In this document: piece after piece, positions 1 to 27,653 of the stretch
Layout: every line of letters starts with the position of its first letter
How positions within the stretch are numbered: the first letter of the stretch is position 1
Notes under the pieces: generated by a model
Seen by the model: only the letters and a program-made list of their open reading frames with translations
What the model was told of the DNA's origin: nothing
The model's database searches: none
Made by a program: the position numbers and the translations under genes
Assembly: GCA_964016885.1 (NCBI GenBank)
Contig: CAXHJY010001476.1
Coordinates: 1 to 35,896, forward strand
Length of the DNA stretch: 35,896 nt
DNA from: Eledone cirrhosa
Taxonomy: Eukaryota
Direction of reading: 5' to 3'

Positions 1-299
1 AAAAAAAACTTGGTACATCTACATATGTATACGTGTGTGTATTCATATACATACTAGTATTTCAGTATACATATATGGATGTACATCTTTGACTTAATTG
101 TTTGAGCGTCAGTCATACAAAAGTGAGTTACAAACGAAACGAAATTTAATTTCGTTTCGTTATTTGTTTTTATCGTCTCCGTTGAACCGGTACTTACTCA
201 CACTCTATGCAAGTTGGTCTGCCCACTACTAATTTTCATAGAAAAAGCATATAGCGATATGTGCTTTTACGATTCTCTAGAGTGGCCGGAAGATAGGTA

Positions 300-344
300 A
301 ATATTGCTGATGAGTTGTAACAACAACGAAACTAGTTCAATATT
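300..344 (+). ncRNA. Minimal type I hammerhead ribozyme (469-bp unit, copy 1)
   Basis: AATATTG-CTGATGA-GTTGT-AACA-ACAAC-GAAA-CTAG-TT/CAATATT: 7-bp helix I, intact CUGAUGA/GAAA core, 5-bp helix II, palindromic CUAG helix III loop, GUU triplet (predicted cut 337/338). Confidence 0.9.
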
Positions 345-768
345 CCTTGTCTGGCTTTCTGGAGAATAGAGGAAAGGTGTTTCCTCAAAAACCAGTATGA
401 CTCTAAAAACCGGTTTGTCTGTGTGTTTACATACAGAATAGCTGGCCACTCACAGTAAAGTGATCAGTGAAAAAAAACTTGGTACATCTACATATGTATA
501 CGTGTGTGTATTCATATACATACTAGTATTTCAGTATACATATATGGATGTACATCTTTGACTTAATTGTTTGAGCGTCAGTCATACAAAAGTGAGTTAC
601 AAACGAAACGAAATTTAATTTCGTTTCGTTATTTGTTTTTATCGTCTCCGTTGAACCGGTACTTACTCACACTCTATGCAAGTTGGTCTGCCCACTACTA
701 ATTTTCATAGAAAAAGCATATAGCGATATGTGCTTTTACGATTCTCTAGAGTGGCCGGAAGATAGGTA

Positions 769-813
769 AATATTGCTGATGAGTTGTAACAACAACGAAA
801 CTAGTTCAATATT
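769..813 (+). ncRNA. Minimal type I hammerhead ribozyme (469-bp unit, copy 2)
   Basis: Same motif as 300-344, offset by 469 bp. Confidence 0.9.
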
Positions 814-1037
814 CCTTGTCTGGCTTTCTGGAGAATAGAGGAAAGGTGTTTCCTCAAAAACCAGTATGACTCTAAAAACCGGTTTGTCTGTGTGTTTACA
901 TACAGAATAGCTGGCCACTCACAGTAAAGTGATCAGTGAAAAAAAACTTGGTACATCTACATATGTATACGTGTGTGTATTCATATACATACTAGTATTT
1001 CAGTATACATATATGGATGTACATCTTTGACTTAATT

Positions 1038-2112
1038 ATATATATATATATATATGTATATATATATATATGTATATATATATATATATGTATATATATA
1101 TATATATATATATATATATGTATATATATATATATGTATATATATATATATATATGTATATATATATATATATATATATGTATATATATATATATATGTA
1201 TATATATATATATATGTATATATATATATATGTATATATATATATATATGTATACATATATATATATATGTATATATATATATGTATATATATATATATA
1301 TATGTATATATATATATATATGTATATATATATATGTATATATATATGTATGTATATATATATATATATATGTATATATATATATATATGTATATATATA
1401 TATATATATATATGTATATATATATATGTATATATATATATGTATATATATATATATATGTATATATATGCATATATATATGTATATATATATATATGTA
1501 TATATATGTATATATATATGTATATATATATATATGTATATATATATATATATATATGTATATATATATATGTATATATATATATATGTATATATATATA
1601 TATATGTATATATATATATGTATATATATATATATGTATATATATATATATATATGTATATATATATATATATATATGTATATATATATATATATATATG
1701 TATATATATATATATATATATATGTATATATATATATATATATATGTATATATATATATATATGTATATATATATATATATATGTATATATATATATATA
1801 TATGTATATATATATATATATATATATAAATGTATATATATATATATATATATATATATATGTATATATATCTGTATATATATATATATATATATATATG
1901 TATATATATATATATGTATATATATATATATGTATATATATATATGTATATATATATATATATATATGTATATATATATATATATGTATATATATATATA
2001 TATATATGTATATATATATATACGTATATATATATATATATATGTATATATATATATATGTATATATATATATACGTATACATATATATATATATATGTA
2101 TATATATATATA
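1038..2112. repeat. Degenerate (TA)n microsatellite with TG interruptions
   Basis: Direct reading of the sequence. Confidence 0.98.
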
Positions 2113-2743
2113 TATACTATATAATATTTTGAGAATAAGCTCGCAGTCCTTTACAATAATTAAGCTCCAGGAAAGGGTCATTTCCGAGCAGTTAAATACA
2201 TTAAAATATATGATAAACACAAAACGTGTTTGCATTGCAACAGACAGTCAGCTATTAATGAAATAAACTAATTAAAGTGAATACAATTTCTCTGTCTCGA
2301 TATAAGTCAATAAAGACAATCTTACATTGGCAACTGCCATGATTCCTGGACAGATTTAAATTTCAAAATCCAAACCTGTTCTGTAGACGAATTTGAACCT
2401 CGAAACCTTTCGCAATGGTGGTATGTGAATTTAAAAAATAAAGAGAATCGAAATGGAATTGAAATAAAGAGTGAAATATCCAAATCTTCTGTGCATATCA
2501 ACAGGAATCCAGTAGAAATTAATACATTTCACATCAAAAAATTTTGCAAGTCTGACTACACGTGTATAGCCAGACCAAACTAGCCGCCCCGCATTAACGG
2601 TGCTAGAAATAACAGCCATATATGCGGGATTAAAAATCAGCTCTAACATTTAAGGAGCAATATACTATATAATATTTTGAGAATAAGCTCTCAGTCCTTT
2701 ACAATAATTAAGACGTTTTGTGTTTATCATATATTTTAATGTA
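2113..2743 (-). mobile_element. Non-coding element: 548-bp unit + partial tandem copy + short terminal inversion
   Basis: 2113-2164 is repeated at 2661-2712 (period 548). 2713-2743 is the reverse complement of 2197-2227. TA flanks both sides. Strand is inferred from a G-U-containing hairpin that pairs fully only on the minus strand and from the inversion position. Confidence 0.65.
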
Positions 2744-25200: not shown

Positions 25201-25698
25201 CTCGATAAAAGCACTGGATATGTAGTCCTGAAGATTTCTAATAAGAATGAAACGCGTAGATTACTTCCCTTGCTTTTATCGAGAATCTAATTGTAATACG
25301 TGACGTATTCTATTCTATAGCGATTAGGTCTTCAAAATGTTTATTATAAACATACAGAATATTTTCGAATATTCTATGTCTATATTCACATATATATCGC
25401 TATTTCAGAGCATTTATTCCAATTTCTAATTTCTGCCGGACCGGCAACCGCTCTTTCAAACCAGTTCCTGTACACAGCTAAGTATTCTATAAGTCTCTAG
25501 CTGTGTCATTCTCGATAAAAGCACTGGATATGTAGTCCTGAAGATTTCTAATAAGAATGAAACGCGTAGATTACTTCCCTTGCTTTTATCGAGAATCTAA
25601 TTGTAATACGTGACGTATTCTATTCTATAGCGATTAGGTCTTCAAAATGTTTATTATAAACATACAGAATATTTTCGAATATTCTATGTCTATATTCA
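22300..25698 (+). repeat. 310-bp tandem array, 11 units, each with a hammerhead ribozyme (retrozyme-like)
   Basis: Units start at 22301, 22611, 22921, 23231, 23541, 23851, 24161, 24471, 24781, 25091 and 25401, with only scattered substitutions. TA flanks both sides. Confidence 0.97.
22432..22474 (+). ncRNA. Minimal type I hammerhead ribozyme (310-bp unit, first of 11)
   Basis: GTAGTC-CTGAAGA-T-TTCT-AATA-AGAA-T-GAAA-CGCG-TA/GATTAC: palindromic CGCG helix III, GUA triplet (predicted cut 22468/22469). Further copies start at 22742, 23052, 23362, 23672, 23982, 24292, 24602, 24912, 25222 and 25532. Confidence 0.9.
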
Positions 25699-26255
25699 TA
25701 TATATATATATATTTTATATATATATATATATTTTATATATATATATGTATATATATTTTATATATATATATATATATATGTATATATATTTTATATATA
25801 TATATATATATATGTATATATATATATATATGTATATATATATATATATATATATATATATATATATATGTATATATATATATATATATATGTGTATATA
25901 TATATATATATATATATATATGTGTATATATATATATATATATATATATATGTATATATATGTATATATATAAATGTAAGTATGTATGTATACGTACATA
26001 CATATATGTATACAGACGTACAGTAGCATGTATATATATATATATATATATATATATAAGTATGTATATATAAGCATGTATATATATATATATATATATA
26101 TACATGCAGGTACACATACATATATGCACGCATCAGTTTAGCAGACGCTTATTATAGCGCTGCTTTGTTCGTTTGTCAACAAACTGAACAGCCTGAATCT
26201 ATGCCATACGGTGTTAAGGCAACCACGTCACCTTTTTGTTCAACACTGACACAGG

Positions 26256-26300
26256 AACGATGTACTAGTTTCAAGCTTGTTAGCTATCATCAGCACCGTT
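26256..26300 (-). ncRNA. Minimal type I hammerhead ribozyme (497-bp unit, left copy)
   Basis: Minus strand reads AACGGTG-CTGATGA-T-AGCT-AACA-AGCT-T-GAAA-CTAG-TA/CATCGTT. Confidence 0.88.
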
Positions 26301-26752
26301 TACCCATCTGCCAGATAGTTGAACGTTCGAAAGTATATACTTTCCTTATGAAAATTAACGGCTGAGCAGCCTAATTTGCATATTGAGTGAGTTAAATCGG
26401 TCAGGCATACCGAAAACGATAAGTTGAAAAAAATGAAAACGAAAAACGAAATTTCATTTCTCACTCTTAGCATGGCACTTACTTAAATGTAAGTATGTAT
26501 GTATACGTACATACATATATGTATACAGACGTACAGTAGCATGTATATATATATATATATATATATATATATATATATATATATATATATATATATATAC
26601 ATGCAGGTACACATACATATATGCACGCATCAGTTTAGCAGACGCTCATTATAGCGCTGCTTTGTTCGTTTGTCAACAAACTTCACAGCCTGAATCTATG
26701 CCATACGGTGTTAAGGCAACCACGTCACCTTTTTGTTCAACACTGACACAGG

Positions 26753-26797
26753 AACGATGTACTAGTTTCAAGCTTGTTAGCTATCATCAGCACCGTT
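26753..26797 (-). ncRNA. Minimal type I hammerhead ribozyme (497-bp unit, right copy)
   Basis: Same motif as 26256-26300, offset by 497 bp. Confidence 0.88.
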
Positions 26798-27653
26798 TAC
26801 CCATCTGCCAGATAGTTGAACGTTCGAAAGTATATACTTTCCTTATGAAAATTAACGGCTGAGCAGCCTAATTTGCATATTGAGTGAGTTAAATCGGTCA
26901 GGCATACCGAAAACGATAAGTTGAAAAAATGAAAACGAAAAACGAAATTTCATTTCTCACTCTTAGTATACATACTTACATTTAAGTAAGTGCCATACTA
27001 AGAGTGAGAAATGAAATTTCGTTTTTCGTTTTTCGTTTTTCGTTTTCATTTTTTTCAACTGTATATATATATATATATATATGTATATATATATATATGT
27101 ATATGTATATATATATGTATATATATATATATGTATATATATATATATGTATATATATGTATATATATATATATATGTATATATATATATATATGTATAT
27201 ATATATATATGTATATATATATATATATGTATATATATATATATATGTATATATATATATATATGTATATATATATGAATATATATATATATATATATAT
27301 GTATATATATATATATGTATATATATATATATGAATATATAATTATATATATATATATGTATATATATATATATATGTATATATATATGTATATATATAT
27401 ATATATGTATATATATATCTATAAATATATGTATATATATATATATATATGTATATATATATATATATATGTATATATATATATATATATGTATATATAT
27501 ATATATGTATATATGTATATATATATATATGTATATGTATATATATATATATATGTATATATATATATATATATATATGTATATATATATATGTATATGT
27601 ATATATATATGTATATATATATATATATATATGTATATATGTATATATAGATA

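Follow-up and report, generated by a model that had tools for sequence, protein, structure and literature searches.

Non-long terminal repeat (non-LTR) retrozymes have been defined in animals, with circles shown in coral, mussel and axolotl and Penelope-like elements (PLEs) named as strong candidates for their mobiliser (Cervera and de la Pena, 2020, PMC7229834). A PLE origin was backed in vertebrates by co-occurrence and by similarity to the terminal repeats of PLEs (pLTRs); retrozyme units measure roughly 150-450 nt, with a range of 51-972 nt in that study (Li, Clavereau and Pollet, 2026, bioRxiv 10.64898/2026.07.22.740005). PLEs themselves are described with an inverted arm, a one-sided tail and, in Naiads, a TA bias that was hypothesised for Neptune, and non-autonomous Chlamys elements were reported in the same work (Craig et al., 2021, PMC8557442). 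Sequences bounded by pLTRs are reported to be moved in trans (Arkhipova, 2013, PMC3846280), and a two-frame Neptune element has been described (PMC12602865). Among cephalopods, Octopus vulgaris has 31 recently active Penelope-like families, in a paper whose available text does not contain the word "ribozyme" (PMC13282606), and 235 Rfam hammerheads were counted in the giant squid (PMC6962438). Here we describe a stretch of 35,896 nt, hereafter the window, which is a whole small contig (CAXHJY010001476.1; C1503 in our labels) from the 3.0-Gb genome of Eledone cirrhosa (GCA_964016885.1). It carries four families of hammerhead-bearing tandem repeats set in imperfect (TA)n tracts together with one PLE, and we consider it probable that these retrozymes are inserted in trans by a PLE reverse transcriptase (RT)-endonuclease. 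The retrozyme class and its proposed partnership with PLEs are already known, and the families found here appear to be undescribed in the literature searched.

Fourteen islands account for 19,558 bases of the window, and almost all of the other 16,338 of its 35,896 bases are imperfect (TA)n. The islands contain hammerhead repeats, the PLE, several fragments of long interspersed nuclear elements (LINEs), as well as one RTE-like LINE. Scanning both strands with structure taken into account turned up four families with 16 type I hammerhead motifs in all, exactly the number claimed in an earlier note made from the letters alone. When the 19,558 island bases were dinucleotide-shuffled 100 times, the motif count averaged 0.12 and never exceeded 2. 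After merging loci and mapping array ends, we found two 3' end sites per family, which we named short (S) and long (L). The families and their targets are laid out as follows:

1-1037, + strand: A469, 2.2 tandem 469-nt units, ending at S and cut by the contig start
300-344 and 769-813, + strand: A469 hammerheads
1037-27653, no strand: imperfect (TA)n tracts between islands, the insertion targets
14829-15444, - strand: F660, a truncated unit of ~660 nt with its L end near 14829
15211-15298, - strand: F660 hammerhead with a long stem II
15365-15444: F660 inverted arm, S-ended
22293-25707, + strand: F310, 11 tandem 310-nt units with one hammerhead each, ending at S
25971-27060, - strand: F497, two ~497-nt units with the S end at 25971
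26256-26300 and 26753-26797, - strand: F497 hammerheads
~26967 to 27060: F497 inverted arm, L-ended

The 11 hammerheads of the F310 array lie between 22432 and 25574 (+ strand), and this array has no inverted arm. The A469 array that the window cuts is whole on a second contig, where it holds 16 forward and 3 inverted hammerheads and is bounded by S on one side and by L on the opposite one. All 16 motifs have a stem I of 5-7 bp and a palindromic stem III of 2-3 bp, and the base of stem II is mismatched in three of the four families. Hammerheads with such a short stem III need a dimer for efficient cleavage (Cervera, 2014, PMC4209133), so the short palindromic stems seen here suggest dimer action. 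Rfam scores stayed below the gathering score of 52 (HH9, 37.7 bits for A469 and 17 bits for F310); the whole-window Rfam scan was dominated by TA-driven microRNA matches, and local scans were run in addition. Computed folds of monomers cleaved at the predicted sites are strong and bring the two ends near each other (z -9.2 and -3.1 against shuffles). Beyond the 16, the window has two variant motifs in the arms of its PLE, one decayed motif (3351-3505) and one probable half motif (15491-15540).

With tandem units of 310, 469, ~497 and ~660 nt, a type I hammerhead in each, a G+C content of 0.31-0.37 and no PLE-protein match found within the units, the four families resemble metazoan non-LTR retrozymes, which are likewise low in GC, noncoding and tandem, carry a type I hammerhead whose stem III is short and palindromic, and co-occur with PLEs. 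From these sequence characters we assign A469, F310, F497 and F660 to that known class. Neither a LINE-type repeated tail nor terminal-inverted-repeat ends occur in their arrays. Exact motif matches, which count units rather than insertions, number 10,181 for F310, 10,692 for F497, 5,201 for A469 and 244 for F660 genome-wide; exact patterns were used here since DNA-similarity search skips very common words. The families are old and diversified, as relatives at 72-80% identity exist, and dozens of further hammerhead families were seen in the genome. An evenly spaced genome sample of 200 kb contained 15 hammerhead-like motifs compared with 1-5 in resampled sequence, which extrapolates to roughly 100,000-200,000 motifs genome-wide.

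Evidence for a PLE mechanism comes from how the arrays end. Our genome samples consisted of the first matches on contig C1 or of the best-scoring matches, not of random draws, so they lean towards young copies, a bias that tempers the counts given below. Across A469, F310, F497, F660 and a fifth tandem family, F548, 144 of 158 3' ends fell at the two sites of their family, with tails of 72, 26, 65, 106 and 81 nt, respectively. This range of 26-106 nt compares with 30-40 nt described for endonuclease-bearing (EN+) PLEs in the available accounts. More than half of the complete arrays (55/102) have both 3' ends facing outward; the reverse arrangement, with the two 5' ends outside, does not occur among them. 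Among these 55 inverted arrays, 45 pair one L with one S end, one is S+S, none is L+L and nine have one unclassified end, a pattern far from a random choice of ends (binomial p 7e-13). Although S and L were defined on the same data, the pairing test is independent of that choice. The four hammerhead families alone gave 34 L+S pairs in 42 inverted arrays, and all four inverted elements of the window are L+S. Close opposite-strand neighbours picked by eye from match tables were head-to-head in 8/8, 10/10 and 15/15 cases, and the one pair found in the opposite order, 1.8 kb apart, represents two separate insertions. In PLEs, the tail has been called unique to these elements and lies in vitro between two internal RT start sites, and at AT-rich DNA the PLE enzyme, predicted to be a dimer, was seen in vitro to cut each of the two strands and to extend both (Frangieh, 2024, PMC11167929). 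Two fixed ends, L+S pairing, head-to-head inversion and TA targeting set our arrays apart from retrozymes as published, the available texts of those accounts containing no description of them. We found no paper on these families or on L+S pairing of retrozymes in the literature searched, which did not cover Dfam and Repbase and whose supplements may list a related consensus.

The layout of units followed by an inverted segment, noted earlier at four places of the window, is present at all four, with two amendments: F660 reaches ~14829 instead of starting at 14871, and the island given as 2113-2743 shares the architecture but no hammerhead was found in it. The third of these places is the PLE of the window, named PLE1, with these parts:

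19134-21668, - strand: PLE1, a 5'-truncated Neptune-like PLE with an inverted arm
20658 to 19134: PLE1 main arm, S-ended
20658-21668: PLE1 inverted arm, L-ended, with a 36-nt tail
20170-20688, - strand: C-terminal piece of a 784-codon RT-GIY-YIG frame (Pfam GIY-YIG, E 5.9e-07)
19260-19297, - strand: variant hammerhead with a U3-A8 core and GCAA replacing GAAA
21470-21507, + strand: second copy of the variant hammerhead

The 156-residue PLE1 piece of the window was 100% identical to all 150 scored genome matches, many of them in 784-codon frames. Judged from four loci together with 20 that were picked because of long frames or tandem copies, the complete element measures 4.9 kb and has a 455-codon upstream frame with no Pfam match, followed by the RT-GIY-YIG frame (RVT_1, E 4e-07; GIY-YIG, E 2e-06 for the full 784 codons). 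This frame has a CX4CxxC linker and a GIY-YIG domain that has two cysteines inside it and two histidines downstream (CCHH). Such an RT with a C-terminal GIY-YIG, a CX2-5CxxC linker, CCHH and an upstream frame are described for Neptune and Nematis EN+ PLEs (PMC8557442, PMC3846280, PMC11167929), which also form incomplete tandems, include an inverted copy truncated at its 5' end, carry a tail on one side and show a microsatellite bias. By these motifs and the two-frame layout rather than by a tree, PLE1 reads as a young, intact EN+ PLE of Neptune-like type, and there is nothing unusual about the copy in the window, an insertion truncated at its 5' end that carries an inverted arm. It shows the same end pairing as the retrozymes, with 19 of 21 inverted copies L+S and one unclassified end in each of the remaining two. 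A stand-alone family carrying GIY-YIG only was considered and rejected, as frame lengths differ between copies and full frames exist; of four open frames longer than 784 codons that were checked, three read through into TA and one is fused to the upstream frame. A protein collection contained 1,135 PLE1 relatives, and no solved structure matched PLE1 by sequence.

Unlike described EN+ PLEs, PLE1 has a hammerhead fixed for GCAA even though the family is young: all 87 matching strings carry it (redundant loci included), and its relative PLE2 keeps GAAA. Judged from the letters, this hammerhead would be a natural variant of the core, or else a ribozyme that is inactive although its family was recently active; a local Rfam scan of the PLE1 terminal region found no ribozyme. 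The genome has many PLE families overall, at least four of them with long open frames, including a 775-codon PLE1 relative with a U3-A8 hammerhead and a more decayed GC-rich family. PLE2 has a 68-nt tail and eight of its nine inverted copies, counted by eye, are L+S. An upstream frame of ~410-455 codons, homologous between PLE1 and PLE2, lies in another reading frame than the RT (L031, L325). Another of the families with long open frames, young and with 785 codons (L343-L354), has Hydra-like motifs by eye, hammerhead-like motifs near its ends and 150 scored matches at 99-100% identity.

We then compared insertion sites, counting a TA flank under a strict rule of at least 4 TA pairs within 16 nt. 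TA flanks were present at 132 of 144 S or L ends, against a background of 8,550 of 199,680 positions (4.3%) in twenty 10-kb samples. They were also present at 19 of 47 5' ends, which argues that the tracts were there before the insertions. The last 1-8 bases of every S and L site are TA-like, and pairing with the primer may thus reinforce the endonuclease preference. Among 23 arrays inspected, three had duplications of ~12 nt, all located where the DNA is AT-rich but not TA. As a control outside the system we used a LINE with several copies in the window:

4706-5740, + strand: LINE 3' fragment
16611-17985 and 33211-34163, - strand: further copies of the same LINE

These sites bear on the alternative that a CR1-like or RTE LINE mobilises the retrozymes, in which case TA would be a general sink and the inversions would be L1-style twin priming. 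LINEs have indeed been named as mobiliser candidates (PMC7229834), and the window LINE favours TA at both ends, with 19 of 30 3' ends under the strict rule, 24 of 30 under a loose one and 12 of 18 5' ends. TA alone is therefore not diagnostic, a result that counts against taking it as a PLE mark, and TA tracts are plainly a sink common to several element types. Retrozymes nevertheless exceed both this LINE and the RTE (10 of 30 3' ends) in strict TA flanks, with p values of 2e-4 and 4e-11. The earlier suggestion of homing to (TA)n thus holds for the enrichment, which extends outside the window, and is weakened as to specificity. Moreover, retrozymes lack the LINE-type repeated tail, none of 68 5' junctions joins directly to LINE or RTE sequence, and a reading by eye of the first 100 matches of each element gave a single close opposite-strand pair for the LINE and none for the RTE. 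L1 twin priming inverts an upstream segment of the element, not two copies of its 3' sequence from two fixed ends. We therefore regard LINE mobilisation as very improbable. The arrays instead have PLE-type junctions (two 3' ends, head-to-head inversion, 5' truncation and ~12-nt duplications) and no LINE or DNA-transposon hallmarks.

The window LINE, which has a short repeated tail and 2,639 exact matches, is possibly a microsatellite-targeting LINE. The RTE-like LINE (28977-32051) encodes endonuclease and RT domains, has an (ATG)n tail and one stop at 31605-31607, and its 3' motif has 16,063 exact matches genome-wide. Further LINE 3' fragments are set in TA on the minus strand at 12391-14323, where an RT domain is present, and at 16167-16525. 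At the edge of a TA tract, 27654-27877 has a 152-nt partial duplication and was unmatched among the loci fetched. Contig C1064 (1-22400) carries a near-identical copy of window positions 1-13108 in reverse orientation, representing a second haplotype or a duplication; an empty insertion site was looked for in the part shared with the window and none was seen.

The sequence variants within arrays indicate how each was made. In 37 of 41 cases, the arms of one array resembled each other more than they resembled other arrays. In 11 arrays of at least four units, the units differ from the array majority by 0-1.5 changes, all of them private in nine, while differences between arrays amount to 3-12 for A469 and 0-5 for F310. 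Arm consensuses were identical at five of six loci, the sixth merging two neighbouring arrays. This near-identity of arms and units is in keeping with a single event that copied one RNA, and the homogeneity is compatible with a monomer circle and with a transcript of an already homogeneous array alike. The arrays could also be DNA-level satellites grown by unequal crossing-over from a single monomer insertion, with the inverted arm made by fold-back or self-priming. Local amplification has been invoked for retrozymes (Li et al., 2026, 10.64898/2026.07.22.740005), palindromes at inverted junctions are reported and antisense self-priming is proposed for the inversions of PLEs (Arkhipova, 2013, PMC3846280), and in our data a few junctions show overlaps of 8-32 nt and two arrays have the same variant in more than one unit. 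Stepwise expansion, however, predicts shared variants, and in the window F310 array 15 of 15 are private to a single unit. Most junctions have an overlap or gap within 4 nt, the arms usually begin at different unit positions, and fold-back leaves the near-constant outer pairing of one L with one S unexplained. We thus find a satellite origin quite improbable, and place the priming of both arms on one RNA somewhat above an even prospect.

The remaining short families of the window are the following:

2113-2747, - strand: F548, one 548-nt unit plus overlap, with the L end at 2113
2710-2747: F548 inverted arm, S-ended
3351-3505, - strand: fragment of a further hammerhead family, with an altered core and unpaired stem I
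15491-15540, - strand: 3' stub of an abundant short family, resembling a hammerhead 3' half

F548 has at least 169 genome matches, drawn from the 40 that were scored among 1,643 candidates, and as a tandem family shows the complete PLE insertion signature, with 11 of 13 inverted copies L+S. Canonical, relaxed and minimal scans as well as whole and local Rfam scans found no hammerhead in it, which is why we keep it out of the retrozyme class. A by-eye reading as a twister-like ribozyme was dropped when Rfam gave no match. Its closest described counterpart is Chlamys MRC1, a noncoding PLE passenger with pLTRs and head-to-tail multimers from a clade mostly without hammerheads (PMC8557442). Unlike the Chlamys non-autonomous elements, which according to that account generally resemble the 3' end of an autonomous family, F548 matches no PLE examined. 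A relative of the 3351-3505 fragment at locus L052 has an intact core. The 15491-15540 family often occurs as tiny inverted stubs with long and short ends of its own (L260, L115, L033, L138), and it forms chimeras with F497 (L136) and PLE1 (L022).

Taken together, we hold it highly likely that the retrozymes depend on PLEs. The published link between the two, as given in the available texts, rests on co-occurrence and pLTR similarity; here the insertion signature is clear and pLTR homology was not found. Mobilisation by PLE enzymes, as proposed in the earlier note, is supported, the families being TA-enriched beyond the window and ending in PLE-type junctions. A dependence on PLEs in general is likely, and nothing seen ties the GIY-YIG element of the window in particular to these retrozymes, PLE1 being one of at least four PLE families with long open frames. 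The comparison with full-length PLEs suggested at the time did not yield the expected homology: apart from simple repeats and nested copies, retrozyme units matched neither the terminal repeats of PLE1, PLE2, PLE3 and PLE4 nor the 1.5 kb behind 30 further GIY-YIG matches.

Several observations weigh against the proposed model. No unit resembles any PLE terminal repeat examined, and no partner emerges from among these families. At the S and L sites no common fold was found, nor do the tails agree in length. F548, which has no ribozyme, spreads likewise, and this insertion pattern can thus do without self-cleavage. Two of the 11 long arrays carry variants common to several units, for which a multimeric template or a later duplication of blocks would account, and assembly polishing or gene conversion could inflate identity within arrays. 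One chimera (L139) joins two long ends. Of the 18 hits that a screen for chimeras gave among 68 5' ends, most were artefacts of simple repeats. The inspected joins (L022, L041, L136, L139, L200) are anecdotes that may be nested insertions, and the same applies to a few chimeras in which PLE2 or another short family directly abuts a retrozyme or F548 arm.

Alternatively, the repeats would be detached pLTRs of autonomous, unsampled PLE families, entering the genome as truncated copies of the parent element and forming arrays afterwards, still PLE-driven but no independent parasites. Most scattered hammerheads have been read as truncated PLEs (Cervera, 2014, PMC4209133), 24 of 57 Xenopus retrozyme families are homologous to known elements, nearly all PLEs (Li et al., 2026, 10.64898/2026.07.22.740005), and few of the many PLE families of this genome were sampled. 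Yet the arrays reach ~27 whole units without coding sequence, none of 47 5' ends runs on into shared upstream sequence, and the age and diversity of the retrozyme families, with relatives at 72-80% identity, argue against detachment. The cores differ as well, being C3-G8 in the four retrozyme families and mostly U3-A8 in Neptune-like PLEs with an identified motif. We consider detached pLTRs unlikely and keep the trans-mobilisation of independent retrozymes as our working model.

Under that model, arrays would be transcribed and their hammerheads, likely as dimers, would cut the RNA to monomers that likely circularise. A PLE protein, likely a dimer, would bind the RNA and nick both strands of a TA tract ~12 nt apart. 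One nick would prime at L and the other at S of the same RNA, with 1-8 nt of TA-like complementarity possibly helping, and each RT would copy one to many units. The two cDNAs would then join at their variable far ends to give a head-to-head array; alternatively, one arm would fail and a simple 5'-truncated array would result. That the shared template is a circle seems to us slightly short of an even call. The fullest version, with two PLE RTs primed from opposite TA strands chasing round one circular ribozyme RNA and writing both arms, is put forward tentatively, as a possibility that we rate a little lower again.

What is new here is the integration signature, chiefly the near-strict pairing of a long and a short end on a shared template. 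It addresses two open questions, namely what mobilises animal retrozymes and where the inverted arm and one-sided tail of PLEs come from, and it makes a prediction to nucleotide precision: two start sites per RNA, one for each target strand, on the same template. The suggestion that such elements accumulate in TA tracts masked as simple repeat was borne out by the islands of the window, which sit in (TA)n, and by the hammerhead excess in the 200-kb sample; tracts of this kind can hide dense nests of mobile elements. If the full mechanism is true, it would amount to target-primed reverse transcription in a twin-primed rolling-circle form, of which many unrelated RNA parasites, ribozyme-bearing or not, make use.

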